Assembly (NCBI GenBank): GCA_965222115.1
Contig: CBDCTJ010000007.1
Location: forward strand, 1,932,082-1,996,081
Length of the DNA stretch: 64,000 bases
Direction: 5' to 3'
Source: Planctomycetota bacterium
Lineage (GTDB): Bacteria; Planctomycetota; PLA2; JAEUHO01
Within the stretch, counting starts at the first letter, position 1, and every line of letters begins with the position of its first letter. The notes under the pieces were generated by a model that worked only from the letters and a program-made list of their open reading frames with translations, searched no databases and had not been told where the DNA came from. Below, one piece after another: positions 27,331 to 52,463 of this stretch. The translations under genes and the position numbers were made by a program.

Positions 27331-30132
27331 ATGCGGTCGAACCAATGGACGAGGCTACCCATGGATGCAGTTAATCCCCGAACCGGCTCGGGCGAGATTT
27401 CCAGTCTCGGCCTTCGCGATGTGACGGTTGTAACGCCATGCGATACAACCGAGCGCAGCGCGTTTACGACAAGCTCACGCGCGAGATGGGCAGTGACACC
27501 GACGACGCATGAGCGCGCACTGCGTGTGCGCCAACTGTTGCGTACAACGGCCATGGCGAGCGTGGCGGCGCTCATGAGCCTTGCCATGTTCGGTACAGCC
27601 TTTGGTGAAGACTTCCCACTGGGCGATCCACCTGCCGAGAAGATTGTCGAAGAAGCGAAGAAGACTGCGTCGGACGTAGCCAAGAAAGCTGGCGAAGTTG
27701 CGGAAGCCGTTGGTGAAGCCGCCGAGACGGCTGCGAAGCCAATCAAAGACGCTGCAAAGAAGGCGGCCGACGCGCTAGCGAAAGACTCGTCGAGTACGAA
27801 AGATGAGCCCAAGGCCGAGTCCAAAGCCGAAGCGCCTAAGGACAACGGGCAAAAGCAACCCGCGGCTGCGGGGACAACCGGCGCAACCGCACCCTCGCCA
27901 GACGGCGCGAGTGCAGCGTTGGAGCGCGAAAACCCCGGCACACCGATTCCACCCGCGCCGGGAACCTCAACAAACGCACATGCTCCCAACCCGATGGCGC
28001 CGCGTGCCGTTCAGTACCGTTTGGAACAGCGATACGATCCGCGTACCGGGCGGCGTTTCTATGTGCGTGTACCGGTCGTACCGACTGCTGTAAGCGCACG
28101 GGCAACGAATCCGCAAGGCATAGGCGGCCGCCAACCCGCCGCCCAGCCACCCCTTCCAACTCGCGTTGGCCAAGTCGCCACGGCCGACCAACTTGCTGGC
28201 CAAACGTGGGTCGAGGTACTTCCCGACGGTCGCCGCATTTTGCATCGTCCCAAGACGGCGGGCACACGTCCCAACGGCACACCCAATACGGCGGACGCAC
28301 CCGCGTCACCGGGTTCTTCATCGCAACCCGGGCAGCCCGAGCCTGCCATCGGCGACACCGGCGCGCCGCCAACCAGCAATGGTGGCCAGTCACCGAACGG
28401 CACAATTAGTCCTGGAACTACAGGTAGTCCCGGAACTACAGGTAACCCTGGATCCGCCGCCCCCGATTCCGGCATTGGCATGCCGCCCGCAGAGGGCGCA
28501 TTCCCGGAGCCCACGGCCGATCCCGATGGTGCGGAACGTACAGCCGAAGATGCAGAGGAGGACTCGCCCGGAGCTTCTTCTAAGAATGAAACGGATGATG
28601 CCGGCCAGCCCTCGGAAGGGGATGACACCAATCCCTTCAACCCCGGCGAAGACGCTGACGCGACGAATGCTGAAGAATCCGGCGCTACCGATGCCAATGC
28701 GAGCGATCCGGCCTCCGCCGCCCCCGCGGCCAAAAACCTGCCAACGCCCGGCTCAAGTGCCGATCTGGGGACTCTGCCAGGATTGAAAAAACCCCTGGCG
28801 CCGCCAGCCGTGGATCCTGCTAGCAATGACCCCGCAGATTATGGCGACCCTCGCCATGTGGGTTCCGGTGGCTTTGAAGATGTGGGTCCGCCTTCACCTC
28901 CCGCCAGTTCGTCGAAAGAGCCCGCGGCTCCGACGTCCACTGAGACAGACGACGGTGGATCGATTTGGGCACCAGCCGAAGATGACACGACAAGCGAAGA
29001 TGTGCCGGAGGGTGCTGCGCCCACGGGAACGTCAACGCCTGTAGGTAAATCAGGCGAAGATGAAATCTGGGCCCCCGCAGCCGATGCACCGGGTTCCTTT
29101 GAAGATATCGATCGTCCTGCTCGAACCGATTCGGTGCCCGCCTCGACCGCCTCTTCCTCGTTGCAGGCACGGGTTCAAGAACACATTACGCTTCTGCGTG
29201 ATCGACCCGGTAGCGCGGGCGTTACGGCATATCCCGGCAGTCTGATTCAGCGCTCCCCAGCGGATGTGGCATTGGAACCTCGCCGAAAGGCGTGCGTGAT
29301 CGCATTCTTTGATGACACGTCGCGCGGTTCAGCAAACTTCGCCGCCGATGTTCTTCCCGTGCTTGCCAACTACCGCGATGAAATCGAGTTTGTTGCGATT
29401 GAGCAAAACTCCGACGCGAAGCCAAGTCCCACCGAAGAGCGCGTTGTGCGACGCTATTTGCAAGCCGTGCCCGGGTTGGTCGTGTTGCCCCCCAATCGAG
29501 ACGACCCGCGCATTTTCAACAGTCGCTATACCGCGGACGACATTGAAGAGGCGTTGGAACTTGCCGTGCGCGCACCCACGGCGTCTTCGCCATCGCGTCC
29601 CGTCGGCTCAGGGCCCATCGACGACGGTGGAACCGAACCTCCGTGGCATCCCAACGACACGCCACTTGTGCGTGAGCCCAAGAATCCCGCGGGACGCTTG
29701 GCGGGCGATGAGATTCGCACCACGGCCCGTGCACACGCAGACGAACTCCGACGCAATGCTGGTGACCCCGATCTTGTCGGATATCCGCGATCCCTGCTAA
29801 GTACTACGGCCCCGGCCGCCATTCTTGAGCGCGGCCAAAAGCCGCTCGTGATTCTGTTTTATGACGACAGCGCGAAGGCTTCCGACCGACAAGCCGCCGA
29901 ATTCTTGCCACTGCTGATTCGTCGCAGCGACGACATCGACCTCATTTTGATCGATGTGAGCACAAAGGCCGAGTGGAACGCGGTGGAACAGAAGATTGTT
30001 CGAACCTACTACATGTCCTACGTACCCACGACGGTCGTACTCACGTCGCGTCGTGCGCCCGTGCGCTCCTGGTACCACCTGGTTCGCGCCCGTGACTTGG
30101 AACGTGCGATCAACGAGGCCGCGCGAAAGTAG
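27331..30132 (+). CDS. Secreted Ala/Pro/Gly-rich protein with C-terminal tandem duplicated thioredoxin-like (CxxC-less) domains
   Basis: Probable signal peptide at internal Met 27553 (MASVAALMSLAMFGTAFGE). A/K/E-rich amphipathic repeat region, a long P/G/T/S/D-rich disordered region, then two about 130-aa homologous domains (ACVIAFFDDTSRGSANFAADVLPVL... and PLVILFYDDSAKASDRQAAEFLPLL...). Confidence 0.6.
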   Translation: MRSNQWTRLPMDAVNPRTGSGEISSLGLRDVTVVTPCDTTERSAFTTSSRARWAVTPTTHERALRVRQLLRTTAMASVAALMSLAMFGTAFGEDFPLGDPPAEKIVEEAKKTASDVAKKAGEVAEAVGEAAETAAKPIKDAAKKAADALAKDSSSTKDEPKAESKAEAPKDNGQKQPAAAGTTGATAPSPDGASAALERENPGTPIPPAPGTSTNAHAPNPMAPRAVQYRLEQRYDPRTGRRFYVRVPVVPTAVSARATNPQGIGGRQPAAQPPLPTRVGQVATADQLAGQTWVEVLPDGRRILHRPKTAGTRPNGTPNTADAPASPGSSSQPGQPEPAIGDTGAPPTSNGGQSPNGTISPGTTGSPGTTGNPGSAAPDSGIGMPPAEGAFPEPTADPDGAERTAEDAEEDSPGASSKNETDDAGQPSEGDDTNPFNPGEDADATNAEESGATDANASDPASAAPAAKNLPTPGSSADLGTLPGLKKPLAPPAVDPASNDPADYGDPRHVGSGGFEDVGPPSPPASSSKEPAAPTSTETDDGGSIWAPAEDDTTSEDVPEGAAPTGTSTPVGKSGEDEIWAPAADAPGSFEDIDRPARTDSVPASTASSSLQARVQEHITLLRDRPGSAGVTAYPGSLIQRSPADVALEPRRKACVIAFFDDTSRGSANFAADVLPVLANYRDEIEFVAIEQNSDAKPSPTEERVVRRYLQAVPGLVVLPPNRDDPRIFNSRYTADDIEEALELAVRAPTASSPSRPVGSGPIDDGGTEPPWHPNDTPLVREPKNPAGRLAGDEIRTTARAHADELRRNAGDPDLVGYPRSLLSTTAPAAILERGQKPLVILFYDDSAKASDRQAAEFLPLLIRRSDDIDLILIDVSTKAEWNAVEQKIVRTYYMSYVPTTVVLTSRRAPVRSWYHLVRARDLERAINEAARK

Positions 30133-30184: not shown

Positions 30185-30838
30185 CTACTGCCACGTATCG
30201 ATGCGGGCTTCCAAGTGAGGTAGGGCCGTCGCCAAGCGTGTCTTGGCGCGGTGGAGCAATTGCCCCACACTCGATGCACTGATGTTCAATACACGCGCAA
30301 TCGTCTTGTAGTCACAGCCATCCAAGTAGCGCATGGTGAGTAGCAACCGATCCCGATCGGGCAACGCTTGCAGGCCCTCCCGGAGTTCCTGTAGTGCTCT
30401 GCGCTTGTCATCTTCACGCAGTAGACGATCCGCTCGGGTGTGGGTGGATACATCCGGTGCTTCAGACGCGCGCTCCAGGGGAAGCGGCGTTCGCCGGCGA
30501 CGTCGGAGCCACCGAATCACTTCGGTACGGATAATGACCCCCAGGTACGTCGAGAGTCGATACTCGGGTTTGTAGGCCTTGAGCAGTGCCCGTTCGCGGC
30601 GAACAAGTGCCAACAAAACGTCGGCCACGATCTCGTCGGTGTCAACGTCGTCGGCCCGTCCGGAATAGTGTCGCAGCAAGCGGCGCACGAGGGCCCGCAG
30701 CAAAGCGCCATAGCGATCTAGAAAGAGCTCCCACGCACCGCGATCCCCCTCGGCGCACCGTCGCGCGAGCTCGGCTTCGGTTACGTCATCGTTCGACGGG
30801 GGGGTGGGCGGATTCATGATTCTGTTAGGGAACACCAC
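30185..30838 (-). CDS. RNA polymerase sigma-70 factor, ECF subfamily
   Basis: Region 2 (ELFLDRYGALLRALVRRLLRH...DEIVADVLLAL) and region 4 HTH (LTMRYLDGCDYKTIARVLNISASSVGQLLHRAKTRL). Confidence 0.85.
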   Translation of the reverse strand: MVFPNRIMNPPTPPSNDDVTEAELARRCAEGDRGAWELFLDRYGALLRALVRRLLRHYSGRADDVDTDEIVADVLLALVRRERALLKAYKPEYRLSTYLGVIIRTEVIRWLRRRRRTPLPLERASEAPDVSTHTRADRLLREDDKRRALQELREGLQALPDRDRLLLTMRYLDGCDYKTIARVLNISASSVGQLLHRAKTRLATALPHLEARIDTWQ

Positions 30839-30996: not shown

Positions 30997-31860
30997 TTGG
31001 AGGACTCCATGAAACGCGCCCGAGGTACGCCTGCCGTCGGACGGTTCAGCTCTCCCGCTGTTGGAAGCCCGGTAGCCGGCTCCCCTCAGGTCGAACTGCA
31101 GACTGGCGTCAAGCTGTCCGTCGAACTATCCGCAGAGGGATCCGTATTGTCTCCTTCGGGGACTTTGGCGGCCGGCTCGTTGAAGTCCGGCACGCCCGCC
31201 GGTCATTCCGCCACTGCCAATGGCAAGCGCGCGGCTCGCCTCGCCAAGCGGCGTGAAGAGCAGGCGCGGGATGTCGTCATCGTGCGTGCCATTCTTGGGG
31301 GCGACCCCGAAGCGTTTCGGCAACTCGTCGATCGCTACCAGCAACCGCTCTTCTGGATCGCGCGCGACATCCTGTTGGATCGCGATGAGGCCTTGGATGT
31401 CGTGCAGGAGTGTTTCGTACGCGTGCACGCGGCGCTCACGCGCTTCGATCAGAGTCGCAGCTTTAAGAATTGGATATTTCGCATCGCGCGCAACCTCGCC
31501 ATCGACATGTATCGACGACGTCGACGGCGGCCCGGATCGGTGGAAGACCCTGCGGTCTATCAGGACGTTGCACCCGAAGCGGAGCGATCGCAATTGGGGG
31601 GACCGAGTGATGGTCGAGCATCGCTGACGGAGATCAAACAGCGTGTACGCGATGTAATGAATGCGCTCCCGCTTGAATACCGTCTCGCGTTGACGCTACG
31701 TGATTTTCACGGCCTTACGCCCCGCGAAGTCGCACGGGTTACCGATTGCAGCTATGCCACCGCGCGTTGGCGACTCCACCGCGCGCGCGCGTTGTTTCGC
31801 GCGTCTTGGCAAGATCGATTTGGCCATGCGATACCCGCGCCTGCAGGAGGTGTGTCATGA
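30997..31860 (+). CDS. RNA polymerase sigma-70 factor, ECF subfamily (with about 90-aa N-terminal extension)
   Basis: FRQLVDRYQQPLFWIARDILLDRDEALDVVQECFVRVH (region 2) and LTLRDFHGLTPREVARVTDCSYATARWRLHRARALF (region 4). Transcribed divergently from the other ECF sigma gene. Confidence 0.8.
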   Translation: MEDSMKRARGTPAVGRFSSPAVGSPVAGSPQVELQTGVKLSVELSAEGSVLSPSGTLAAGSLKSGTPAGHSATANGKRAARLAKRREEQARDVVIVRAILGGDPEAFRQLVDRYQQPLFWIARDILLDRDEALDVVQECFVRVHAALTRFDQSRSFKNWIFRIARNLAIDMYRRRRRRPGSVEDPAVYQDVAPEAERSQLGGPSDGRASLTEIKQRVRDVMNALPLEYRLALTLRDFHGLTPREVARVTDCSYATARWRLHRARALFRASWQDRFGHAIPAPAGGVS

Positions 31861-32846
31861 GTCCTATGCACCACAGGGATAGCATCCAAGACGAACGGGT
31901 TGTGATTGGCGAAGCAACCGGCGATGTGAACCATGAGGGCGTTGACCAGCAGGTTCGGGCACTTGTAAAGCGAGTAGAGCGCGCATTGGATCTTGGGCAA
32001 GACGTTTCGCCCGACGATGTGGATGCGTTACATACGCTTTCGCCCCTGCTTTGTAGGGCGCCGTCCACGCCGCGGCGCGCGCGGTTGCGTTCACGTTTGG
32101 CCGCGGTGGAAGCGCGGTTGGGGCTTAGGGCGCGCACCGAACCCGCGTCATCGTTTGAAGGTCTATATGAACGCGTGGCCACGCGTGTGGTGGAGGAGTC
32201 GGCCACAAGCGTGGATGCCGCGGGCGAAGCCGTGCGCTGGCGCCGCGCTGCGCTCTCAAACTCATTCTTGGATGCTCCGCGTGCGCTCATGTGGTGGCGC
32301 GTTGCGGCGTGCACCGCTGTGGCGTTGCTTGCGGTGGGGGCGTGGGCTTGGCAAGCGTCGAGCGATGGCGACTCACGCGCAACGATTGCGCGTGGGGATT
32401 CTGATGTTCTGCATCGAAGTCGCGTGATAGCCGACGACGATATGCGTCATGGCCTGCTGACCCTACACCCTTATGGCAACGACGCTGAAAACAACGGCGT
32501 CGAAGATTGGGCAGGAGACGTAGAGCCTGTCACGGACCGGCCCTTGCTCGCGCGACCCGTTCGGTTCGGCGCGAATTCCAATCCGGATCCATCGGAAGGT
32601 ATGTATTCAAGTGCACTCGTTAAATCGCGAAAAGACGGCGTAGAGGCACTTACAGGCCGCCAGATACGGTTTTCCAAACATCCCGGTTCGTCGTCCTACT
32701 CGGTGTGGATTGAATCCGATGCGGGTGAGCCAGAGATCATGTTGTTTGTAGACCGCAATCAGACGATTCGCACTCGCGTGAGGTCACGTAGCGGTTCGCG
32801 CGCTGCCATCCATTCAAGTGGCGAGCGAACCGAAGATCGTAAGTAG
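31857..32846 (+). CDS. Putative anti-sigma factor (single-pass membrane protein)
   Basis: ATGA overlap with the sigma gene stop (start taken at MSPMHHRD, 31857). A central TM (WWRVAACTAVALLAVGAWAW). The position is typical for cognate anti-sigma factors. No recognisable family motif. Confidence 0.45.
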   Translation: MSPMHHRDSIQDERVVIGEATGDVNHEGVDQQVRALVKRVERALDLGQDVSPDDVDALHTLSPLLCRAPSTPRRARLRSRLAAVEARLGLRARTEPASSFEGLYERVATRVVEESATSVDAAGEAVRWRRAALSNSFLDAPRALMWWRVAACTAVALLAVGAWAWQASSDGDSRATIARGDSDVLHRSRVIADDDMRHGLLTLHPYGNDAENNGVEDWAGDVEPVTDRPLLARPVRFGANSNPDPSEGMYSSALVKSRKDGVEALTGRQIRFSKHPGSSSYSVWIESDAGEPEIMLFVDRNQTIRTRVRSRSGSRAAIHSSGERTEDRK

Positions 32847-32855
32847 CAGCGACTC

Positions 32856-34100
32856 ATGAATCCATCGTTTGCATCCATTTCGTCGTTGGCGTTTGTAGCT
32901 GGCGTGCTGGCCTTCATGGGTCCGGCCTATGCCGAGGAACAGGCGGCGCCTGCGTCGAAACAACGCGCCCCCGCCAAGCAAACGAGCCCATCCCCGTCCG
33001 CACCGTCTGCACCTACACCGGCTACATCTACACCCGTTTCGATCGATGTATTGAGGCGCGTAAAGCAAAGTACAGCGCGCGTTGTGTGGCGAGATCGTGT
33101 ACGCCCCGCGGTGGTCACGCGGCGCAATGCAATCGCCATCGATGCCGATCAATACCTTTTGATGGCAGGTCCACCGCCGGAAGTTACGGCGGGCGCCATT
33201 ACCGTGACGCACGCAAATGGACTATCGGGCCGTGCCAGGGTGATTGCAGGCGACACGGAAGCAGCGTTGACACTTTTGCGCCTACCGGGTCATGGACTAC
33301 CTGCAGTTGCGCTTCGAAACGAAACTTCGGCGACGCTGGCGCATCGAGGTGAGCGCGTTGCCATGGTAAATGCCGCTGGCGCGATTGCGCGCGGCGCGCT
33401 GCGATCGTTCGGCACGCGCGTCACGGTGCGTCGAGGGCGTTTCCGTAGCCAGTCGTTGGGACTGTTGGAAGCGGGGCTTGCCACCGTGGCGGATGACGTC
33501 GGCAGTCCGTTTGCGGACGTGAATGGACGGGTTATTGGATTGTTCTTGGCCCATCGCGTGGCCAATACGACGAGTCGTGAAAGGGGCGCAACGCGCACCG
33601 GTGTAACGCTTCGCCCGCATGTCGTTTCGTCGTATGCGATTCCCGCATCGACGATTGCGGTGGTGTGGCCACTGCTTCGCGATCGCGGACGTGTACCGCG
33701 CGCCATACTTGGGTCTCACGTGAAAGCCAGGCCCGCACCTGCCGAGTTGCGTGAGCATCTTTGTGCCGGTTGCCCATCCTTCGTGATTACTCAGGCTGCC
33801 ACGATTGGGCTCGGCAACGACGATGTGTTGCGCTCCAACGATGTCATTGTTTCGTTCAATGATCTTCGGTTGCCCGAGGGGGCTAGCTTGGACGAGGCAC
33901 TGCTTCCCTATCGCCCTGGCGATTCGATTCGTGTGCGCGTGTTGCGCGGCGGAAAACCAACGGAAGTGGTCGTCAAGCTGAAAGAGCGCCGACAGACCGC
34001 CATTTCGATAGGCGGGGGCGGAATTCAGATTCGTCAGCAGGTTCGTTCGAAGGCTCGCTCCGGCGCTGCGGCAAGTACCGAATCGCCCGACGAGCGGTAG
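32856..34100 (+). CDS. HtrA/DegP-like trypsin-fold protein with C-terminal PDZ; catalytic Ser apparently substituted
   Basis: Signal peptide. Trypsin-like core with a His candidate (ITVTHANG) and an Asp candidate (GDTEAALTLLRL), but the Ser motif reads DDVGSPFADVNGRVIGLF instead of GNSGGPLxNxxGxVIGI. PDZ-like C-terminus (VIVSFNDLRLPEGASLDEALLPYRPGDSIRVRVLRGGKPTEV). Confidence 0.55.
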   Translation: MNPSFASISSLAFVAGVLAFMGPAYAEEQAAPASKQRAPAKQTSPSPSAPSAPTPATSTPVSIDVLRRVKQSTARVVWRDRVRPAVVTRRNAIAIDADQYLLMAGPPPEVTAGAITVTHANGLSGRARVIAGDTEAALTLLRLPGHGLPAVALRNETSATLAHRGERVAMVNAAGAIARGALRSFGTRVTVRRGRFRSQSLGLLEAGLATVADDVGSPFADVNGRVIGLFLAHRVANTTSRERGATRTGVTLRPHVVSSYAIPASTIAVVWPLLRDRGRVPRAILGSHVKARPAPAELREHLCAGCPSFVITQAATIGLGNDDVLRSNDVIVSFNDLRLPEGASLDEALLPYRPGDSIRVRVLRGGKPTEVVVKLKERRQTAISIGGGGIQIRQQVRSKARSGAAASTESPDER

Positions 34101-34227: not shown

Positions 34228-36261
34228 ATGCCTACGGATCGACCCCAAGACTCCCGCTTTCCCCGCGATCCCCGCCTAATGGGTCGTGCCGGGGAGCCGC
34301 ACGCAAGAGCCGACGACGCCAACAAATGGATCTTTGAGGCGAATGAATGCCTTGAGATTCCCGAGCAGCGTTCTTCGTGGCGAGATTCGTCTTCGCAGAC
34401 TGGAGAAGACGTAGGAGTTGATCCGAGCCTCGTATCGACATTGCTAGCCGACGAGGCGCTTCGCCGGCTCGTGATCGAGGTGGCTCGCGTGGAATTGGAA
34501 GAGGAATATTCGGCCGGGTCCGATTCGGTGGCTCACGTTGGTGGTCCCACCGCCGATCGACTCGCAGAGAATGGACTCGCAAGCGTTGGTGCGGGGAGCC
34601 CTGGATTGGCGCCCACCATTCGCCAGGCGGCCATTCGTGCCTTTAGTGAGTCGTTGGCTTTTGATGAGTCATCGAATGTTCTAAATGGTGCTGGCTCAAA
34701 TGGTGTCTCGCCTTCGCTCAGGCTCGTAACAGTGTCCAATCGAAAGGCCGAGTCCAATCGAGAGGCCGATGAGAAGCAGTCGTCGGCTGCTGCTTCTGAA
34801 CGTTCTGCGGGGAAGGCCAACACGTCGTTTCCTTGGATCCGCATTGCGGCGTTGGTGTTGGTCGCCGTGGGTACCGCCGCGTTGTGGGTCGGGTCCACGC
34901 CCACGAAAGCCGAGGCGGGGTTGTCGCTCCAACGCATTGGTCGTCTCAGCCATCGTGGTGCGGTGTGGTCCCTTCCCAGCATTGAGCCCGCGCGCATTGC
35001 GCATAAGGGCGAGTCGTTTACGCCTCGTGAAGATGAATGGGTGTCGGTCGGACTCACGCATGAGTCGATGGTGGTCGTCGGCACCGGCGATCGCGTGCGC
35101 GTCGTTCCCGCGGAGGAGGTTTTCGCTTCGTTTGATGTCGACTCGATTGAAGCCAATCGCCACACAAAAGCACTTGGCGCATCGATCCGTCCAGGTCAGG
35201 GCATGCTTCGCTTGGAAGCGGGCGAAGCACGTATTGCGTGCAAGCCCGGTGAACCGGTGGTGTTGGCCATAGGTACCGCTGGTGTGCTCGTCGTGGACTA
35301 CGGCGCGGTCCATGTCGTCTTGGAGAGCGGGCTTGCGCATCCGATTGAGTCGGGACGATCGACGGCACGAATCGCAAGTGATGTGAGCGCGCCTCTCATT
35401 GCGCTCGCGCCTCGCAGTCGCGCCGAGTTTTATCCATCCGGCCGATCGAACACGGACTCGAGCACTGCATCGAGCGAGGTGTCGTCAACAAACGATGCAA
35501 CATATGAGAGTTTTGTTTTGTGCGCCGGCGCGCGCGCATTGGTTGGCGACGGCTTTGTTGAGCCCGTAGGGGCGGCCGATCTTTCGCTGTTTCGTGAGCT
35601 TCGATTCTTCGGCGGTCATGTGCCGCGTCCCTTGGCACAGCCACGTGTTCATCCGCGTCGATTCCGCGTGGGCGGTGTAGTGGCTCGCACGGGACGGCAC
35701 GAAGTCTCTTTAGGCTATCGTCGATCGACGAAGCGCGATAGTGAGCGCAAGCAACCGGAAACCCATGCGGCCTATTACATTGCCCGACTCTCCTATCGGC
35801 CGCCGCCGGCATTGGCGGATGCACAGTCGATTCGTGTAGAACTGCGGGCGCCGAAGGGCGCGGCCGCTTGGCTCTTGCGTGAGCCCATCGCGTTGAAAGA
35901 CCTTCGCGTTCTCAAATCACCGCCTGCGTCGGCGGTAGTGAACGATGCGAATACGGCGTCGCATGAACCGAGCACGGCTCATTTCGAGCTCGCGCTTCCC
36001 CGCGGTTGGTATGCCGCGCTGAACGGTCGCCCACTCGAAATTGCGCTCTGGTTGCCCGTGTCTCGGGCGGTGCAGAATCAAGGATCCGGTACGCCGTCGT
36101 CGCGACCGTCGCGTTTTGGTCGGCTCGGCGTCTTTGACGGCGTAACGTTTGTTCTTGAGGAAGGCGACGGCGTGTACGACACGCCGCGTAACGATTCAAA
36201 TCCTTGCTCCATTCCTTCTGGAAATGAACCTGCTTCCACGACGAAGCGGAGGAATTCATGA
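34228..36261 (+). CDS. FecR-like domain membrane protein (anti-sigma/sensor-like)
   Basis: A TM near aa 200 (WIRIAALVLVAVGTAALWV), followed by a FecR-like beta-rich region (RLEAGEARIACKPGEPVVLAIGTAGVLVVDYGAVHVVLESG). Its stop overlaps the start of the giant gene. Confidence 0.45.
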   Translation: MPTDRPQDSRFPRDPRLMGRAGEPHARADDANKWIFEANECLEIPEQRSSWRDSSSQTGEDVGVDPSLVSTLLADEALRRLVIEVARVELEEEYSAGSDSVAHVGGPTADRLAENGLASVGAGSPGLAPTIRQAAIRAFSESLAFDESSNVLNGAGSNGVSPSLRLVTVSNRKAESNREADEKQSSAAASERSAGKANTSFPWIRIAALVLVAVGTAALWVGSTPTKAEAGLSLQRIGRLSHRGAVWSLPSIEPARIAHKGESFTPREDEWVSVGLTHESMVVVGTGDRVRVVPAEEVFASFDVDSIEANRHTKALGASIRPGQGMLRLEAGEARIACKPGEPVVLAIGTAGVLVVDYGAVHVVLESGLAHPIESGRSTARIASDVSAPLIALAPRSRAEFYPSGRSNTDSSTASSEVSSTNDATYESFVLCAGARALVGDGFVEPVGAADLSLFRELRFFGGHVPRPLAQPRVHPRRFRVGGVVARTGRHEVSLGYRRSTKRDSERKQPETHAAYYIARLSYRPPPALADAQSIRVELRAPKGAAAWLLREPIALKDLRVLKSPPASAVVNDANTASHEPSTAHFELALPRGWYAALNGRPLEIALWLPVSRAVQNQGSGTPSSRPSRFGRLGVFDGVTFVLEEGDGVYDTPRNDSNPCSIPSGNEPASTTKRRNS

Positions 36262-39200
36262 TGCAACGAAATCTTCGAACGCCTGCCGAACACGGCGTGG
36301 CCATGATCATCGTCATCTCCATTTTGGTGACCATGCTGCTCATTGCCGTGCCGTTTGCGATGAGCATGCGCCAAGGTGAAGAGCGCACCGAAGCCGTGGC
36401 CGCTAAGCATCGCGCCATTACGGATGCTCAGGTGTTGAGCGATTTGGTGAAGGCGTTCTTGCAAGGGACGCGTCCCGAGCAAGAGGCCGCGCTGCGCACG
36501 CGTGGGGGCGGGGCGCTCGGCGTTGACGCCGATCCCAATGTGGACTCGCTTGCCGAGATTACGCCCGATGAGCGATTTCGTTCAAAGGCTGCGGAGATCA
36601 TTACCGAGCAGTGGATCACCGATCCCGCCATGGCGGCGCGCGCACAGAGTTTGAAGGCACGTGGGCTCTCGCCCCTTAACGATGATCGTGGTTCGATTTG
36701 GACCGTGCGTGTGCAAGATGCACAGGCGCGCATCAATGTGAATAGCGGCGCCGTATGGTTGCTCGCCAATGTCATGGGTGCGGCCACACTCTCAGAAGAT
36801 GTGGACGGCGGCGCCACCGACATTCCCGTCAGCAACGTTGTGGCACCCCTCGCAGGGTTCCCCGGGTTCCCCAGAGAGAACGGCTTCATTCGCATTGGTC
36901 GTGAGGTCATTAGCTACGAACAGTTCGATGGCTCGGCATTTCGCAATTGCACTCGAAGTGCACTGCAAGATTCACCGCTTGGCGACAATGGTACGGCCGA
37001 AGAGTACGAGCAGGGCACACCGGTCATCGATTACGTGGCCTACAAAGTGGCGACCCATCTTTTTGCAAGCAAGCCTGGCGAAATCAACCGCTTCCGCACG
37101 GTGGAAGAACTCAAGAACATCGCCACCTGGGGTGGTGGCGGCACCATGCTCTCCGATCGCCTTGAACAGTTGGAGCCATTCCTCACAGCCTTTAGCCGGC
37201 GGGAAACTGCCGGGGGCTGGATGGCGGAACAACTCGTCACCAATCAGTTGCCCGAGTCCCTGGAAACGGGTAGCGCCGATGTAGTGAAGGTGCGTGACCT
37301 CGTCAATCCCGCGGGGAACTCGTGGTACGTAAATCCCGGTACGCCCGTACGCATTTCAAATGGCGTGCACACGGCCTACCAGATGGTCGCCAACTTGGGT
37401 GATCTAGACGGCCGTCAACGAGGTCGCCAGTTCGCTTTGGCGGGTACGGTGGGCAGTCTCGGTGGTGACATCACCTTCGAAGGTGGCGAAACGCGCGTCG
37501 CTGCGTTTGCACCCTATCCCATCAACATCAATACGGCGTCGCGGGAAGTCCTGTATGCCGTCATGGCCAACGTGCAGCTATGGCGCGCGAAATCGGACGA
37601 ACAGATTGTCACGCCCAAGTTGGCGTGGATGTTGGCGGAGATGATTGAGCGCGAGCGCAAGGGCGCATTGTCCGTCGATGCCGAGTCCGGCGAGCGCCGC
37701 AGTGGTCCGTTTCGCCATGCTGAGGATTTCGGCCGCTTTCTCGGCAAGCTTGTGGATGCGGGCACGCTCAAGCTCGCACAGCAAGCGGCGCTGTATTTGA
37801 ACGCCACCAATCCACACTGCTCAGAACTGCGTTTTGGTACCGCGCCGTGGAACTATCGCACGTTGGATGTCTATCACGTGGAGACGCGTGTTGCGCTCAA
37901 TAATCGCGTGGGTGAACAGATTGCGGTTGCGGGCACGCGCGAAGTTGTTGAAATCGGTAGCGATAGCACCTGTGTATGGAGCATCGACTCGCAGAGTGAG
38001 TTCGAGCAGCGCTTGGAGCAGGGCCACGGCGCCAAGTGGACCACCACGTTTCCCTACAACGTGACGTTTAAAAATGAGGGATTGGCCCACATTCAGCCCG
38101 GGATTCGCGGGCCGCAGCAGTTTATTCGTGAGATTTATCCAAGCGACGACCGCGAGGAAGACCTCGGGGACGTTCGTATGGAGCCGGCGCGCATGCGTTT
38201 GCCCGGTGCGCAGGTCATCGACAACTTTGATTCGCGTTATTACGCCTACGGCCATTACACCGTGTACGACGGCGTCTATCGCAAGCGCACCAACCAGACG
38301 TTGATGGGTCGTCGCGACAAGGTCGTGCGTCCGTTCAAAATGTCGTTCTGGTGGCGCCCCTATTCCAGCGCCAACTGGACAGCGTTTGATTGCGCGCGCG
38401 AAAAGTTCGAAGATCGTTTTGCGATCTTTGTGACCGACAGCGAAAACGGTGGGCAAGAGCTGGTATTCCGTTGTTGCGCGAGCACGCTTGAGCAGCGCGG
38501 TGCGGAAGTCTATGTTCCCCTGGAGCGCATCGGCTACGAACCCGGTACGTGGTACCACATCGACGTGAGTTGCCGAGGGGAAGATCCCTCCACCATGCAA
38601 CTGCTAGTTGATGGTGTGGATGTTGGTATTCGCCGCTCGTTTACCTATTTGCGATCTTCGATTTCACAATCCGACGAGGAGATCGGCGTGGAGTCCACTG
38701 CGGGTTTCCCACCGCGCGGTGCACTGCGTATTGGCAACGAGATCATTGAGTACGATCTACTTGCAGGCGATACGGGATTTAGTGAGCTACTGCGCGGCGC
38801 ACGCGGCACCACGGCGGGGGATTGGGCCGAGGGCACACCGGTGCACTTGCTTGGCTATTCACTGCCCATTACCGTGGATGTCATGAAGGGTGGCGCCACG
38901 CTCGAGGACGGGCTCGGCAAATGGCGCGCAGTTCGCATTGTGAGCGATGAAGACTCGTTGACGGTCAATGTGGGACCCAATGGCGACATGCCCATTGTGA
39001 TTTTCGGGTATGCCCCCGAGAACACAGAGCCCACGCTTGAGATCACGGGTATGTGGAATTATGACGACACCGAGTGTACCGATGCGTTTCAGTCAGAAGG
39101 ATTTGCGCTCCTCGGTTGCCCCAAGCCAACGTTTTCCGATGGTGTTAATGCAGAAGAAGAGCCGGAGGTCATTCTCGGTGGCCATGAGGTTGTCTACTAC

Positions 39201-41846
39201 ACGAAGAACGGGAACTCCTTCACCGTTGAGCGCTTTCAAAAGACCGCGTGGCAAGGGGCCGCAGAGCCCTACTTCTTGATTTCGGGGGCGGATGCGGGTG
39301 CGGGGAAGTTCAACTTTCCCTGTTACATGTTGCCCATATCGATCTTAGCAAGCGGCGGGCAGGATCCCGATGCTTATCTCAATCCAGCGGTTGTGGAACA
39401 TCGAGAGATTCTTGGTCGGTATTACAACAATAGTGAGTCTGCGCGCATCTTGATTGGAACCGACGATCCTGTGGATCAACATGAAGTGATTCGATATGAC
39501 TCCATCGATACGCAACGTGCGCAGACGGGCGCGTTGTTTCTTCGCGACCGTGCGTTGGGCAGAATAACGCGACATTTCTTTGGAAACTCTGAGACGATTG
39601 AAGGTGGTTCATCCACCAATCCAGATCCCGACCCTGACCCCGATCCGGATCCAGATCCCGATCCCACGCCAGATCCCGGTCCTGGTTCAGGGGGTGGTAG
39701 TGGCGGAGGTGTCATCGATCCGGTGCCGGGCGATGGTGACGCGCCCCAACCCAATGGTGAGATTCCTCCTGGTTTGAGAGATCCGGAAGACACGCCCAGC
39801 ACGGAAGATCCAGATGAGGGTGAGACACCGACGGAACCCGGTACGGGCGAGCCTGATGAGGGAGAGGGCGAAGGCGGTAGCGAAGAACCAGATGAGCCCA
39901 CTGGCGAGACGCAAGAAGAGGAAGAGAGTGGAGATAGTCTTCTCGATGGAGAGGGGGAAGGCGTCGAAGAAGATGACGTGGACGACAACGGAAGCGATAC
40001 AGGGGGTGACAACGGGGAGGGTACGGGTGGTGCCAAGCCCACGCCCGAAGAGCCCACAGAAGACGAGAGTGGTGGTGGTGAATCTGAGTCATCACCCGAA
40101 CCTGATCGGGAAGACGAGATCATTCCCAATCAAGTTCTGCAGGATGACGTCGAGGTTGATGAAGACGTGCCACAGGAGGACACCGAGTTCGGTCTGGGCC
40201 GAAATGTGTACTACGAGCCGTTGGGGCCGAGAACCGCGATCGATGAATTGGGGTTCCGTGGCGTGAACGGAACAGTTCACCGTGATCACGCTTCCGGAGG
40301 TGAAGAACGCAACAGCCGCGTGATTCCTTGTTTCCGCGTATGGCAAGGTGGCTCGGGCATCACCGCTCGTGTGGGTCGCAACGACCGCATCACTTTGACG
40401 AGCGGGAGCCTGGAGGATCCAGTCGAGTATGAAGTCGGCATCCGTTGGGCCAGTAGCGATTGGGTCGCGCCGGAAGACTTTCCGCCTGAACGTATTAAGG
40501 CGGCCGTACAGGGCGCGCGTACGATTCGTACGGATTGGCGTGAGTTTCCTCGGGCACTTAAGTTCCCCTCGGGCGAACTACCGAGTCGTTTAGGCCGAGA
40601 GATTGAGTTTGGCCAGAGTACGGTGTCGGACAGCGGCATTGCTACGGCCTTCATGGATGACCTGCATATATGGCGACAAGATCTCGATCCACCGCTGCGT
40701 GTGGTGAATGAAGAAGAGATCACGCCCACGACGCCCGAGATCGCCGTAGTCAATACCGTCAATTTGCGTGAAGTATCGGACTTTGATGGGTTCCGCGCCA
40801 GCGGCGGCCTGATCATGGTTGAAAGCGAGATCATTTACTACCGCGGATACCGCGTGGACGGTGAGCGCACCTACGTCTTTGAAAACTGCATTCGTGGCGT
40901 GATGGGCACGCGCGCACGTGCCCATGCCATTGGTGCCAAGGCGCGCTTGCTGGCCGACATTCCCGCATCAACGCTGCAAGGGGGGCTCGCACCCGAGTCG
41001 TCGTCGATTCCTATTGCGGATGCACGCAACTGGCCCAGCGAGGGTCTTGTGCGCATCGTTGGCGAGGAAACGGTCGAGTTGGCCCACTACACCCGTAAGA
41101 GTGGCGCCGACCTGATTATGCCCGAGTCGCTGGATGCCGATCGGCGTTCCCGTGGACGCGGGTTATTCCGCGGTCGCTTTGGCACCGAAGCCATGTCGCA
41201 TGACTCCGATCAGGTCGTGTTCTTCCATCCCTACCGTTTCTGGGATCGCTTTGCGCCGCGTGCGGCGGAAGACGGGGACGCGTTCCCCGGTGTACACGAT
41301 CATCCCGAGACGTCCTACCTTGAGCTCGGCACCAAGGTGCACTCGGCCTATTGGCGTGGATTTACATGGCAAGAGAACCTGATCGCCAACTCGCGAGGTG
41401 CTGGAAACACGTTCGACAGCAGTGTCGGTGATGGCAGTGGCGCGCTTGATGTGATTGTGCTGGCGCGCTTCAATCCCAACGTCCCGTGGGACAGTACGCG
41501 CGTCATGGATATGCGCGATGCGTCAAGCGGGCTCGGGCAGACGTCGGGCGACAAGCGGGATGCCATGGATGCCCTGTTCGTGTTTGACGCACCGGGCGAA
41601 GGCGTGATCGGGTCTGGACTGAACGGTCATCACTTGGGTGTTGAATCCGACACGGCCGAATTCCGGGTCTACTTTGACTACAAGCCAAATGCCTATGAGG
41701 CCATGGACTTCCCGTCTACATCGGGCACGGTCTTTGATGATGAGCGCGTGTTCGTCAATGACTGGAAGTCCACGCCGTGGCTTCAGGCGCTCCGCGCGTC
41801 CTATGTGAGCCGAACGAAGACGCGTTACCGCGTGCCGTTGCGATAG
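36258..41846 (+). CDS. Giant (1862 aa) protein with GspK/PilX-like pseudopilin N-terminus, internal repeats and acidic PD/E-rich linker
   Basis: GGAGGA RBS. The N-terminus RTPAEHG|VAMIIVISILVTMLLIAVPFAMSMRQGEERTEAVAAKHRAITDAQ matches the GspK-type prepilin-like pattern (Gly at -1, no Glu5). Three copies of the motif (I/L)RIGxE(I/V)IxY...RGxxGTxAxxxxxGTPV. (PD)8 and Asp/Glu-rich block at about aa 1120-1290. Confidence 0.7.
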   Translation: MMQRNLRTPAEHGVAMIIVISILVTMLLIAVPFAMSMRQGEERTEAVAAKHRAITDAQVLSDLVKAFLQGTRPEQEAALRTRGGGALGVDADPNVDSLAEITPDERFRSKAAEIITEQWITDPAMAARAQSLKARGLSPLNDDRGSIWTVRVQDAQARINVNSGAVWLLANVMGAATLSEDVDGGATDIPVSNVVAPLAGFPGFPRENGFIRIGREVISYEQFDGSAFRNCTRSALQDSPLGDNGTAEEYEQGTPVIDYVAYKVATHLFASKPGEINRFRTVEELKNIATWGGGGTMLSDRLEQLEPFLTAFSRRETAGGWMAEQLVTNQLPESLETGSADVVKVRDLVNPAGNSWYVNPGTPVRISNGVHTAYQMVANLGDLDGRQRGRQFALAGTVGSLGGDITFEGGETRVAAFAPYPININTASREVLYAVMANVQLWRAKSDEQIVTPKLAWMLAEMIERERKGALSVDAESGERRSGPFRHAEDFGRFLGKLVDAGTLKLAQQAALYLNATNPHCSELRFGTAPWNYRTLDVYHVETRVALNNRVGEQIAVAGTREVVEIGSDSTCVWSIDSQSEFEQRLEQGHGAKWTTTFPYNVTFKNEGLAHIQPGIRGPQQFIREIYPSDDREEDLGDVRMEPARMRLPGAQVIDNFDSRYYAYGHYTVYDGVYRKRTNQTLMGRRDKVVRPFKMSFWWRPYSSANWTAFDCAREKFEDRFAIFVTDSENGGQELVFRCCASTLEQRGAEVYVPLERIGYEPGTWYHIDVSCRGEDPSTMQLLVDGVDVGIRRSFTYLRSSISQSDEEIGVESTAGFPPRGALRIGNEIIEYDLLAGDTGFSELLRGARGTTAGDWAEGTPVHLLGYSLPITVDVMKGGATLEDGLGKWRAVRIVSDEDSLTVNVGPNGDMPIVIFGYAPENTEPTLEITGMWNYDDTECTDAFQSEGFALLGCPKPTFSDGVNAEEEPEVILGGHEVVYYTKNGNSFTVERFQKTAWQGAAEPYFLISGADAGAGKFNFPCYMLPISILASGGQDPDAYLNPAVVEHREILGRYYNNSESARILIGTDDPVDQHEVIRYDSIDTQRAQTGALFLRDRALGRITRHFFGNSETIEGGSSTNPDPDPDPDPDPDPDPTPDPGPGSGGGSGGGVIDPVPGDGDAPQPNGEIPPGLRDPEDTPSTEDPDEGETPTEPGTGEPDEGEGEGGSEEPDEPTGETQEEEESGDSLLDGEGEGVEEDDVDDNGSDTGGDNGEGTGGAKPTPEEPTEDESGGGESESSPEPDREDEIIPNQVLQDDVEVDEDVPQEDTEFGLGRNVYYEPLGPRTAIDELGFRGVNGTVHRDHASGGEERNSRVIPCFRVWQGGSGITARVGRNDRITLTSGSLEDPVEYEVGIRWASSDWVAPEDFPPERIKAAVQGARTIRTDWREFPRALKFPSGELPSRLGREIEFGQSTVSDSGIATAFMDDLHIWRQDLDPPLRVVNEEEITPTTPEIAVVNTVNLREVSDFDGFRASGGLIMVESEIIYYRGYRVDGERTYVFENCIRGVMGTRARAHAIGAKARLLADIPASTLQGGLAPESSSIPIADARNWPSEGLVRIVGEETVELAHYTRKSGADLIMPESLDADRRSRGRGLFRGRFGTEAMSHDSDQVVFFHPYRFWDRFAPRAAEDGDAFPGVHDHPETSYLELGTKVHSAYWRGFTWQENLIANSRGAGNTFDSSVGDGSGALDVIVLARFNPNVPWDSTRVMDMRDASSGLGQTSGDKRDAMDALFVFDAPGEGVIGSGLNGHHLGVESDTAEFRVYFDYKPNAYEAMDFPSTSGTVFDDERVFVNDWKSTPWLQALRASYVSRTKTRYRVPLR

Positions 41847-46780: not shown

Positions 46781-48565
46781 GTGATGCGGAATTCAGCTCT
46801 TTCGGATCTCACCAGGACGTCGGTGTGGATCCTTCTCGTGTTGGTAGGCGTTGCCATTGTTGGGGGCGGGCGCGGCGAACTCGCGCGGGCGGACGGCGAA
46901 TCTGAGAACAAGGCGGCGCCAGCCTTGCGCTACCTCACATCGAGCGACGTGATGCAAACGCTCAAGCAGTTGAAGCTAGATCACACGATGCCCGAAGGCA
47001 TGGATTGCCTCGTGCTCAAGTACGGCAAGAGCGCACTCGATCGACCACTTGCTGCGATATTCATAGGCCGTAAACAGGCGCCCACCGTCTTGGTGCACGG
47101 TGGACTCATGGACCGAGATTGTGCTGGTACCGTCGCTTGCGTGGAATTGGCGCGTCGCATCCTCGCCAATATTGACACCCATACGAAGTCTGTCTCGTGG
47201 CTCATCATTCCCGCGCCGCATCCCGATGCGCTCGATGCGTTTCTGGCGGGAAGACCTAGTAGAACGCACAAGTCCTACTTGGTGGATCGCGACTTGGATG
47301 GCACACGCGGGGAGGACGGACCGCACGATATCAATGGCGACGGTGTGGTTGCCGAGATGCGAATACGAGATGCATCCGGTACCTGGGTTCCCAGCGAAAA
47401 GGACAACGAGTCTTCAAAGAAAGACGAATCAGAGGCATCGCCGAGTTCAGGCCGGGAAGAAATGGAAGACGCCGGTGTGGATGCGCGCCGTGCCGTGTCA
47501 TACCGGCTGTTGGACGAAGGTGCGGACCTCGATGGGGATGGTGAAATCGGGGAAGACCCACCGTCGCTCGACCTCAGTCGCAACATGACCGGTTATTGGA
47601 CGCACGCGGGTCCGTGGGGTGGCGAAGGGCCTTTTCCTGGGTGGGCGCCCGAGACGAAGGCGCTCATGGATCTCACGTACGGCATCACAAATTTGGTGGC
47701 CTGGTACAGCTTCACCAGTTCGGGCGATGAAATCCTCCGCGCGAATGCCAATGGAAAGATCAACGATGCCGATGGCGCCCTCTACAAGCGCATTGCCGCC
47801 GCTTTGAAAGAACGCGTCGGCCTCAAGACCATCAAAGCATCCGACTCCTACGAAGCGGGCAATCCTGGTTGCGATCTCGACTGGGCGGGTGTTCACCTCA
47901 CTGTGCCGGCGTTTCGCGTTCCCATTTGGCGCTTGCCGATGATGCCTATGAAGAAAGCGGCGAAGGACTCTTCTAACGATGAGGAGGTCAAGAAGAGCAA
48001 GGCAAAGGATGAGGCGAAACCAAAGCCATACGCCTCTTGGCTGGCGTGGGATGAAGCCGAAAACGGCGGGGAAGGGTTCATGCCTTGGACTGCACACAAG
48101 CATCCAACGTTGGGTGACGTGGAACTAGGAGGCTGGAAACCCTTCTATCGCTATGAGCCCCCCGAGTCTTATCTCTCCGCGGCAGTTGCGGCAGTCGTCG
48201 AAGCGCCACTTGTTCACAGCGAGTTTGCGCCGGCGTTGAAGCTTACGTTTGAAACCAAGTCGCTCGGGGTAGGCATTGTTGAAGTCACCGCACGAGTCAT
48301 GAACGTTGGCCACGTGCCTACCAGCACAGCGAGTGCCCGTAAGCGCAAGCGCTCCATGAGCGTGCGCGTGGAATGGGACCTAGCGGGTGACGTCACGCTT
48401 GTTGGCGGAAAGCGTCACGTGCGGGTTGGACACTTGGACGCAGGCAAGGCGTCCAAAGAACTGCGTTGGCTTCTCAGGAAGAATGATGGGGCGGCGCTTC
48501 TGGGCACGCTCAAAGCTCGGCATCGTGTCGCGGGATCGGTTTCGGAGGAGGTTCGGGTTCCATGA
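46781..48565 (+). CDS. M14 carboxypeptidase-like protein, probably catalytically degenerate (paralog of next gene)
   Basis: Signal/TM. The region aligned to the HxxE Zn motif of the downstream paralog reads VHGGLMDRD. Shared D-rich module (DRDLDGTRGEDGPHDINGDGVVAEMRIRD vs DNDRDGLIDEDGPDDLDGDGHILQMRIKD). Its stop overlaps the next start. Confidence 0.55.
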   Translation: MMRNSALSDLTRTSVWILLVLVGVAIVGGGRGELARADGESENKAAPALRYLTSSDVMQTLKQLKLDHTMPEGMDCLVLKYGKSALDRPLAAIFIGRKQAPTVLVHGGLMDRDCAGTVACVELARRILANIDTHTKSVSWLIIPAPHPDALDAFLAGRPSRTHKSYLVDRDLDGTRGEDGPHDINGDGVVAEMRIRDASGTWVPSEKDNESSKKDESEASPSSGREEMEDAGVDARRAVSYRLLDEGADLDGDGEIGEDPPSLDLSRNMTGYWTHAGPWGGEGPFPGWAPETKALMDLTYGITNLVAWYSFTSSGDEILRANANGKINDADGALYKRIAAALKERVGLKTIKASDSYEAGNPGCDLDWAGVHLTVPAFRVPIWRLPMMPMKKAAKDSSNDEEVKKSKAKDEAKPKPYASWLAWDEAENGGEGFMPWTAHKHPTLGDVELGGWKPFYRYEPPESYLSAAVAAVVEAPLVHSEFAPALKLTFETKSLGVGIVEVTARVMNVGHVPTSTASARKRKRSMSVRVEWDLAGDVTLVGGKRHVRVGHLDAGKASKELRWLLRKNDGAALLGTLKARHRVAGSVSEEVRVP

Positions 48566-52191: not shown

Positions 52192-52463
52192 GTGGGGCTC
52201 TTGTGGAGTCGTTCCGTGTTGTCTGCGAGAGGGCGACGCTCATCTCACGCAGAGGCGCAAAGGACGCGGGGGCGCAGAGGGCGGCCTGTTTAGGAGCGCG
52301 GCCTTGCGGAAGTGGGCACTGCTTGGTGGGGGAGGGGACTTGAAGAAAAAGCTCACACGAAGAGCGCCAAGGAACGAAGCGCAGGCGTGGCGGAGCAGTG
52401 TTCGAGAATGTGGAGGAGTGTCTGGTGGCGGGACGGTTTTTTGGAGAAGAAGGCTCTGTCGCG

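Follow-up and report, generated by a model that had tools for sequence, protein, structure and literature searches.

A very large GspK-type modular minor pilin from a Planctomycetota bacterium, probably presented at a filament tip

The window, the whole 64,000-nt stretch of planctomycetal DNA analysed here, carries a gene for a giant protein of 1862 aa (Table 1). The reading frame at 36258..41846 (+) was verified; its start has an ATGA overlap with the ORF at 34228..36261 and is preceded by GGAGG 5 nt to the 5' side. An earlier note on this DNA had described the ORF, its N-terminus and the overlap, and each was found as described when re-read in the sequence; the N-terminal sequence quoted there matches the translation. 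Residues 13-37 form the sole hydrophobic (TM-like) segment of the protein. The neighbours of the giant gene are genes for sigma factors, EF-P, GlmS and LpxL.

Table 1. Features of the window, in order of position (aa positions refer to the giant protein unless the row names another).
Feature	Position	Strand	Basis
Secretin	1469-3562		Confirmed
PilT/PilU ATPase	8637-9911		Confirmed, over cut-off
PDZ protein	10159-11499		Confirmed
ECF sigma factor	30997..31860	+	Confirmed
Candidate anti-sigma factor, single-TM, ATGA-coupled	31857..32846	+	
HtrA/DegS-like PDZ protease	32856..34100	+	PDZ_2 over cut-off; Trypsin_2 just under
Upstream partner, bitopic membrane protein of 677 aa; TM at its aa ~204-222, conserved periplasmic part at its aa ~225-640	34228..36261	+	ATGA overlap with giant gene
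Giant GspK-type modular minor pseudopilin gene, 1862 aa	36258..41846	+	ORF and homologue searches
Class-III (prepilin-type) signal: 13-aa leader to Gly13, then hydrophobic alpha1-N helix VAMIIVISILVTMLLIAVPFAMSM	36258..36368	+	Sequence reading
GspK-fold module, aa 1-566: pilin fold and helical (SAM/HhH-like) domain, with two beta-domain insertions	36258..37955	+	
GspK signature strand SIWTVRVQDAQARINVNS, cf. E. coli GspK WQLRDAQHCFNLNAL	36690..36746	+	hhalign; NF037980 positions 1-107 span this stretch in homologues
Repeat copy 1, aa ~195-258, phage-tail-like beta-barrel inserted in GspK module	36840..37031	+	hhalign; model beta strands 207-258
Second beta-domain insertion within GspK module, aa ~320-418	37215..37511	+	
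PININTASREVLYAVM, helix-hairpin-helix start of second SAM-like domain of GspK	37518..37565	+	PF03934 (T2SSK) positions 1-22 match in 19/25 members
Probable ConA/LamG-like beta-sandwich (tentative), aa ~640-800	38175..38657	+	Laminin_G_3 in homologues
Repeat copy 2, aa ~812-867	38691..38858	+	PHROG and hhalign
Acidic Gly/Pro-rich disordered linker with (PD)7, aa ~1105-1295	39570..40142	+	Composition; model pLDDT <50
C-terminal all-beta module, aa 1296-1862; well-predicted part ~aa 1480-1820	40143..41843	+	
Repeat copy 3, aa ~1506-1565	40773..40952	+	PF23666
Repeat copy 4, aa ~1590-1655, with family-invariant RGRGLFRGRFGT	41025..41222	+	hhalign; absent from earlier note

The N-terminus has the form of a GspK-type class-III signal, dividing into the leader MMQRNLRTPAEHG and a mature protein that begins VAMIIVISILVTMLLIAVPF. 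Position +5 of the mature protein is Ile, not Glu, as is typical of the GspK type. Over the 25 aligned family members, this position is I, L, V, M or S and never Glu (25/25). The family consensus, (R/S)G↓(V/I/M)A(L/M)L.V(I/V)T, follows the same pattern as QRG↓VALLIVL of E. coli GspK (the arrow marks the cleavage site). The giant protein has no match to the N-methyl GFxxxE signature (PF07963 or TIGR02532), which is expected because K-type subunits lack Glu5.

The signal leads into a complete GspK fold, made up of a pilin fold with an inserted helical domain (two SAM/HhH-like), the arrangement of GspK-type proteins. NF037980 (T2SS_GspK) matches 22 of the 25 family members (best E 2.4e-10), its matches spanning the N-terminus together with a 'D.Q...N.N' strand, and the ININTA motif, while Pfam T2SSK (PF03934) matches 19 (best E 4.1e-4 over the 25). 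P421, N425, T426 and A427 are invariant in the family. Alignment with E. coli GspK by hhalign gave 86% (E 5e-6), and the structures nearest to the model of the giant are T2SS GspK and XcpX, with GspK by far the strongest structural match; the Foldseek search missed GspK. When aa 1-700 and the family profile were searched against PDB sequences, GspK was not among the matches, which were confined to low-complexity noise and a pappalysin LamG match that was not significant. The window protein itself has no Pfam or NCBIfam GspK match at E<=0.1 and lies under every curated GspK threshold; these are 130 bits for NF037980 and 24.2 bits for PF03934, and homologues scored 12.8-40.4 and at most 20.6 bits, respectively (five members scanned). 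Judged from sequence profiles, the homology of the giant with GspK is of superfamily level, not equivalog level.

Searches yielded 33 full-length homologues of 1.8-2.0 kaa, and at least 383 clusters (50% identity) match aa 1-620, most of the full-length ones being of 1300-2040 aa. The family, at 54 loci in species-representative genomes, is one of uncultured Planctomycetota: nearly all of these genomes carry that label and are MAGs. Clade A includes the window protein and clade B comprises distant full-length relatives (~24% identity); the GspK-module invariants G13, A15, V19, P421 and N425-A427 are kept in both. Each MAG has a clade-A or a clade-B gene and none has both, a distribution that fits one orthologous function.

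The gene context of clade B is that of a pseudopilin cluster. At all 25 clade-B loci, each in a Planctomycetota MAG, at least one pseudopilin gene adjoins the giant gene, and the full order is FHA, PilM-like, ..., GspG-like, GspH-like, giant, GspJ-like, GspI-like. Clade-B giants thus fill the K slot of G-H-K-J-I clusters, 3' of a gene whose product bears the source annotation 'pilus assembly protein PilM', and their GspJ-like neighbour bears the same barrel as the giant. No ATPase or secretin gene was found within 10 kb of these operons. The 64-kb window holds no second prepilin-type gene, and no clade-A relative has one within 10 kb, and so the partner pseudopilins in this genome are assumed rather than seen. 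A search for a PilM/G/H/J/I operon elsewhere in clade-A genomes, with a PilM-like query, returned close clade-B relatives only, with no clade-A locus-tag prefixes, and the 64-kb window contains no prepilin peptidase gene. The suggestion of the earlier note, that a GspK/PilX-type N-terminus is fused to a giant extension in a candidate fibre-tip protein, gains support from the profiles, from the Glu5-less class-III signal and from the K-slot context of the relatives.

The extension and the GspK module share a repeated motif. Three copies, at ~aa 205, 815 and 1510, had been noticed before and are real and homologous: hhalign gave profile-profile probabilities of 98.3% for copies 1 and 2, 95.9% for copies 1 and 3 and 96.8% for copies 2 and 3, whereas no control segment exceeded 1.2%. 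There is, however, a fourth copy, matching copies 1 and 2 at 89.9% by hhalign and carrying the family-invariant residues R1638, G1639, R1640, G1642 and T1643. Nor is the motif 'unrecognised', as had been stated. Copy 3 is Pfam PF23666 (Rcc01698_C; 31.5 bits against a cut-off of 27, E 2.3e-7), which matches 21 of the 25 family members, and copy 2 matches phrog_4406 (E 4.4e-14), phrog_2885 (baseplate wedge; E 7.9e-13) and phrog_1101 (tail protein). By these sequence matches, the motif is a small beta-barrel known from phage tail-tip proteins. The C-terminal region of the RcGTA megatron is a fibre-binding domain (PMC7296036).

The extension as a whole resembles the N-terminal barrels of phage tail-tip, tail-fibre and tailspike proteins, and no enzyme fold was found in it. 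A LamG-like domain at aa ~640-800 is probable but tentative: Laminin_G_3 matches the aligned region of the homologues P0027 (28.8 bits, over the cut-off) and P0016, with no direct match in the window protein. The Asp/Glu/Gly-rich linker reported earlier is real, spans ~190 aa and is confined to relatives in clade A, where its length varies (G 19%, E 18%, P 16%, D 15%; net charge -58); its dipeptide run, at aa 1122-1135, is (PD)7 and not (PD)8, with PT-PD next in the sequence. An RHS/YD-repeat or autotransporter adhesin was rejected, as there were no such Pfam matches and the sole AIDA-I match (18.7 bits against a cut-off of 1459) was to the (PD)n run. The proposal of a pilin-like giant stood when checked against an ordinary signal anchor and against a known adhesin or RHS family.

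Homologues of the upstream partner lie directly 5' of the giant gene in clade-A loci (28-36% identity). The label 'FecR-like' (PF04773) given earlier to this gene was dropped: the window protein and three orthologues have no Pfam match at E<=1, no PDB or FecR similarity was found, and the partner family gave 0.1% against E. coli FecR by hhalign, the single-pass topology being all that the two have in common. The placement of the giant gene downstream of an ECF sigma/anti-sigma/HtrA-like cassette was borne out, and in clade-A loci the cassette adjoins the pair of partner and giant in either orientation. This conserved adjacency only suggests control of the giant gene by the sigma factor. GlmS and EF-P are equally syntenic with the clade-A pair, and the adjacency may therefore simply be collinearity. 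A scan of 30-43 kb for sigma-70 promoters and terminators was of little use here, with no promoters and with terminators at chance level, and inspection by eye of the 127-nt gap before 34228 revealed no convincing ECF-type promoter.

The secretin, PilT and PDZ protein reported in the same window are all present, but their co-occurrence is not linkage. The three genes lie 25-35 kb from the giant gene and are interleaved with those for RNase E/G and Obg, and are therefore not in one operon with it.

GspK/PilX-type subunits are regarded as small caps whose task is to prime type IV filaments. The giant is a very large, new form of modular minor pilin. Taken together, the observations make it probable that a GspK/PilX-class minor (pseudo)pilin has grown into a ~200 kDa modular tip subunit of a type IV filament, be it a T2SS-like pseudopilus or a retractile pilus, and its role is likely that of a filament-tip binding module. 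In such a scheme, alpha1-N would hold the giant in the inner membrane and prepilin peptidase would cut the leader after Gly13. As it lacks Glu5, which bonds a subunit to the one above, the giant would occupy the topmost position of the filament, which it would nucleate with GspI/GspJ-like partners. As the fibre grows, the giant would be pushed outward, so that its beta modules come to be exposed at the tip and could bind there to a docking partner protein or to a ligand, a glycan or surface being the likeliest. In clade A, the gene would have left the pseudopilin cluster and now stands with a gene for a translationally coupled bitopic protein, beside an ECF cassette that may control it.

The giant differs from GspK/XcpX (PDB 3CI0 chain K and 5VTM chain X; PF03934; NF037980) in being about six times larger (1862 against ~330 aa), with two beta-domain insertions in the GspK module and ~1300 further residues after it. 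It also scores far under the curated thresholds and lies outside a gsp cluster in the window, and the gene order in its relatives is G-H-K-J-I, whereas that of GspK systems is G-H-I-J-K. The combination of an N-terminal pilin module with non-pilin modules (here the GspK module, the LamG-like region, four PF23666-type barrels and the C-terminal beta module) is that of modular pilins. In the passages drawn on here, modular type IV pilins such as S. sanguinis PilB/PilC, ETEC CofB and Thermus ComZ likewise join a pilin carrier to tip-presented effector modules (PMC8179133, PMC6561018). As described there, S. sanguinis PilC has a lectin-type (ConA-like) module, as the giant probably does, and Thermus ComZ has domains inserted within its pilin fold, as the giant also does. 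The carrier of the giant is, however, a K-type tip subunit and not the ordinary pilin of those passages. The largest modular pilin singled out in the cited part of the survey has 860 residues, that part does not mention phage-tail-tip-like barrels, and the InterPro N-methyl signature it describes using was not detected in the giant (PMC8179133). The PilY1/PilC type IVa tip adhesins exceed 1000 aa, are displayed at the tip and act alongside the minor-pilin priming complex, and the giant may be expected to play a similar part; PilY1 is, however, a non-pilin that docks by a C-terminal beta-propeller, whereas the giant is itself a pilin-like subunit, in which Pfam searches found no such propeller.

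It is possible, though unlikely, that the giant instead caps a periplasmic T2SS pseudopilus acting as a secretion piston and is never surface-exposed, its extension engaging cargo or the secretin. The closeness of the model to GspK and XcpX favours this, as do the best matches of the clade-B major subunit and its neighbour, to GspG (53 bits) and GspH, respectively, and the slightly better score of the window secretin against GspD than against PilQ. Yet the GspG, GspH and GspD scores all fall under the curated cut-offs, the clade-B operon uses a PilM-type protein, and the window has a PilT/PilU retraction ATPase that scores over its cut-off. Moreover, a periplasmic piston would hardly have room for tail-fibre-like barrels and a 190-aa tether in an extension of ~1300 aa.

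A bolder form of the filament-tip reading, which must be regarded as quite doubtful, is that the giants form the working tip of a retractile fibre peculiar to Planctomycetota. With receptor-binding modules of the phage-tail-tip kind and a lectin module, carried on a long acidic tether, the fibre would capture polysaccharides or particles, or recognise other cells, and then reel them in, and production of the clade-A tip would be gated by the ECF sigma/anti-sigma/DegS-like cassette. Planctomycetes have unexplained pili-like, dextran-binding fibres that bind substrate (PMC5394234), on which such a system, if real, would give a genetic handle.

It is improbable that the clade-A giant has ceased to be a filament subunit and become an inner-membrane-anchored envelope protein with an ancestral GspK module, for example a sensor or scaffold acting with its coupled partner under the ECF sigma factor. 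The lack of pseudopilin neighbours in the window and at every clade-A locus would be accounted for, as would the conserved pairing with a non-pilin membrane protein beside the ECF/anti-sigma/DegS-like cassette and the restriction of the acidic linker to clade A. However, both clades keep the prepilin-type signal and the module invariants, and they never occur in one MAG. Type IV filament genes are in any case scattered, with secretin and PilT split by housekeeping genes here and clade-B operons standing apart from ATPase and secretin genes, and the synteny of GlmS and EF-P weakens the argument from adjacency. The giant might also be read as what is left of a prophage or tail, a tail-tip protein of the J/megatron type whose hydrophobic N-terminus arose by chance; this idea is effectively refuted. 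The barrels (~50-150 aa) are all that the giant has in common with the GTA/siphophage megatron and the lambda gpJ-type tip attachment protein (PF23666). Pfam and PHROG searches found no phage hub or central tail-tip domain, and the gene is flanked by no tail or other phage genes. The locus lies on the chromosome, with its place between GlmS and EF-P kept in dozens of MAGs, and GspK is the far stronger structural match.

In this family the cap itself has grown to 1300-2000 residues and become a probable tip module of several domains, some of them phage tail-tip barrels. If fibres do display it, as the filament-tip reading has it, no other modular pilin would come near the giant in size, and it would show clearly that phage receptor-binding machinery and bacterial pilus tips have exchanged domains. 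The giant would then also be a candidate for what determines adhesion or substrate capture in this phylum, the surface fibres of which still lack a genetic characterisation. The clade-B GspG-like and GspH-like neighbours weakly match Verru_Chthon cassette protein D. The 'Verru_Chthon cassette' (NCBIfam TIGR02596 and relatives) we take to be a Verrucomicrobiota set of pseudopilin-like genes, encoding prepilin-type proteins of the PVC superphylum; the giant matches none of its models. A literature search found nothing specific on giant planctomycetal GspK proteins or on this cassette. The giant family goes without annotation ('hypothetical protein') and can now be given a name; one homologue has been annotated by JGI as 'pseudopilin PulG'.

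The giant protein has a single hydrophobic segment, at its N-terminus (MMQRNLRTPAEHG-VAMIIVISILVTMLLIAVPFAMSM). As proposed from the sequence in an earlier note, this N-terminus is of GspK type: the leader ends in Gly, a long hydrophobic helix follows, and the mature +5 residue is I, L, V, M or S, never Glu, in every family member. The absence of Glu at +5 is a hallmark of the topmost filament subunit. The window protein itself has no GspK match in Pfam or NCBIfam. When 25 family members were scanned singly, NCBIfam NF037980 (T2SS_GspK) matched 22 (best E 2.4e-10) and Pfam T2SSK matched 19; the matches covered the N-terminal helix and first strand (profile positions 1-107) and a 'PININTA..VL.A' motif. 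The family aligned with E. coli K-12 GspK over aa 11-319 at 86% probability (hhalign), and by eye 'QRGVALLIVLMLLAL...WQLRDAQHCFNLN' of the E. coli protein parallels 'RGVALLIVITILV...WTVxVxDAQAxVNVN' of the family. In the predicted structure alpha1 is a helix of 60 residues, and the beta strands of GspK and its two SAM-like helical subdomains are all present; the modelled fold is broken by two beta-domain insertions, one at aa ~195-258, which is repeat copy 1, and one at aa ~320-418. The giant protein is a GspK homologue at the superfamily level; it scores below the curated GspK equivalog thresholds, and in this window its gene lacks the operon context expected of GspK.

Homologues spanning the full length numbered 33 (1.8-2.0 kaa) and come from Planctomycetota MAGs wherever the source names an organism; one carries the JGI annotation 'pseudopilin PulG'. 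A query with aa 1-620 against 1.84 billion representative proteins returned 383 clusters (233 at E<=1e-10), and because nearly all full-length members among them are 1300-2040 aa long, the giant size is typical of the family and not peculiar to this genome. Scanning of GTDB species representatives gave 54 loci, almost all labelled as Planctomycetota MAGs.

Mapping of neighbours by tblastn split these 54 loci into two clades. Clade A (38-56% identity to the window protein) is arranged as in the window, with GlmS, a ~930-aa unknown protein, an ECF sigma, a single-TM ORF and an HtrA-like gene upstream, a 500-680-aa bitopic membrane protein directly before the giant, often with a 4-nt overlap, and EF-P and DUF374 downstream. 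The sigma/HtrA-like cassette is inverted in several clade-A MAGs, and no pseudopilin gene occurs within 10 kb of a clade-A giant. Clade B (23-33% identity) can be aligned over the whole length, each module having invariant residues, and its giant sits within a type IV filament operon: sigma-54 activator, FHA protein, PilM-like protein (536 aa), two small proteins and a TPR protein, GspG-like pseudopilin ('KGFTLIELLVV'), GspH-like pseudopilin, giant, GspJ-position pseudopilin ('GLTLIEILVA') and GspI/PilV-like pseudopilin. At least one of these pseudopilins adjoins the giant in 25/25 clade-B loci. No MAG among the 54 loci holds both clades, which suggests that A and B serve a single orthologous function and that the gene moved to a new site in the lineage of the window. 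One locus labelled 'Bacillota bacterium MAG 7' (L054; QNYK01000052.1) carries a clade-B giant with J-like and I-like pseudopilins; this probably reflects faulty binning or labelling and not a true occurrence outside Planctomycetota.

The fold, signal type and family of the giant, and the operon context of its relatives, are established. The giant is probably a tip pseudopilin of the K class that has grown into a modular subunit for display. Its leader would be cleaved by a peptidase, it would assemble with I/J partners and be exposed at the cell surface, and its modules may bind ligand. Alongside the matches to T2SS GspK, a periplasmic T2SS piston cap is conceivable, though we consider it unlikely.

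In the window, the neighbourhood of the giant gene is tightly packed on a single strand (see table). The ATGA overlap claimed between the giant gene and its upstream partner is present, with GGAGG 5 nt upstream; the ECF sigma and single-TM ORF overlap likewise (AGGAGG upstream), as is typical of sigma/anti-sigma coupling. The 677-aa partner has one TM segment (aa ~204-222), and its periplasmic part is conserved. This partner had been called FecR-like, a term that describes its topology only, since it has no Pfam match at E<=1, no PDB match and 0.1% probability against E. coli FecR (hhalign). In clade-A MAGs the 933-aa protein (34-45% identity) keeps its place, with GlmS on one side and the sigma cassette on the other.

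Features of the window
Feature	Coordinates	Strand	Remarks
Secretin	1469-3562		
PilT/PilU ATPase	8637-9911		TIGR01420, 427 bits (cut-off 319)
PDZ protein	10159-11499		
Adjacent 772- and 1072-aa proteins	14389-20177	+	weak Big_5 Ig-like matches, otherwise unannotated
933-aa protein	27331-30132	+	no Pfam family
Second ECF sigma	30185-30838	opposite	
ECF sigma	30997-31860	+	ATGA overlap follows (31857-31860)
Single-TM ORF	31857-32846	+	9-nt gap follows
HtrA/DegS-like gene	32856-34100	+	127-nt gap follows
677-aa protein	34228-36261	+	ATGA overlap follows
Giant gene	36258-41846	+	5589 nt, 1862 aa
Gene pair (594 and 1209 aa)	46781-52191	+	4-nt overlap
Group II intron	52458-54344	-	apparently complete
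RF00029 (Rfam)	52458-52532	-	44.6 bits
RT/maturase ORF	52536-54071		flanked by RF02005 and RF00029
RF02005, D1-D4 (Rfam)	54120-54344	-	169 bits
GmrSD-type restriction endonuclease	56528-58315	+	GmrSD_N and GmrSD_C both present

The secretin, PilT/PilU ATPase and PDZ protein reported in the same window are there, at a distance of 25-35 kb from the giant and interspersed with RNase E/G and Obg. Their presence is evidence of type IV filament machinery in this genome, its genes scattered and not grouped in an operon, but is not evidence of linkage to the giant gene. No other ORF of the 64-kb window has a prepilin-type N-terminus. With this clade-A setting in view, the giant might have been exapted as a membrane-anchored envelope protein under ECF control, a reading to which we give little credence beside that of an enlarged tip pseudopilin.

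The three repeat copies described earlier (aa 205, 815 and 1510) proved genuine, their family profiles matching one another at 96-98% probability (hhalign) against at most 1.2% for control segments, and a fourth copy (aa ~1590-1655) matched copies 1 and 2 at 90%. The motif had been taken as unrecognised; copy 3 in fact scores above Pfam's gathering threshold for PF23666, which is the C-terminal domain (Rcc01698-like) of 'megatron', a tail-tip protein of the GTA, and copy 2 matches PHROG virion-structural, baseplate-wedge and tail families (E down to 4e-14). In RcGTA the C-terminal part of the megatron is the domain that binds the fibre, and sugar binding has been proposed for tail-tip modules (PMC7296036). 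Despite the phage-tail-like barrels, that the giant is a phage remnant is very improbable. The same barrel ends the 361-aa GspJ-position pseudopilin beside clade-B giants (15700-16785 in clade-B locus L004; also loci L007 and L049-L058), as seen in 'IDCIRGVRGTKAQEHLKGTRV' and a PHROG tail protein match; the domain is thus present on two tip subunits of a single filament. A LamG assignment at about aa 680-790 is tentative, as judged from sequence: Laminin_G_3 matches the aligned region in three homologues and, in a Pfam scan, does not match the window protein itself. The claimed acidic linker was found, at about 190 instead of 170 aa (G 19%, E 18%, P 16%, D 15%; net charge -58), and contains (PD)7 (aa 1122-1135) instead of (PD)8. 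Only clade A, in which the gene stands apart from the pseudopilin operon, has this Gly/Pro-rich linker, which can be as short as about 70 aa or as long as about 500 aa.

As an enlarged tip pseudopilin, the giant would, on our working view, unite in a single polypeptide the roles of GspK/PilX and of a tip adhesin like PilY1. The concept of the 'modular pilin', for which the largest example highlighted has 860 aa (PMC8179133), accommodates it. The protein should interest specialists in type IV filaments and planctomycete cell biology; it is not categorically new.

Elsewhere in the window, the GmrSD gene lies just downstream of the group II intron and an LRR protein, where GC falls to 0.54-0.57, and this region may represent a small patch of mobile or defence genes. 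The 594-aa member of the overlapping gene pair has a weak M14 peptidase match, and its 1209-aa partner combines an M14 carboxypeptidase with FG-GAP repeats and an ASPIC/UnbV domain.
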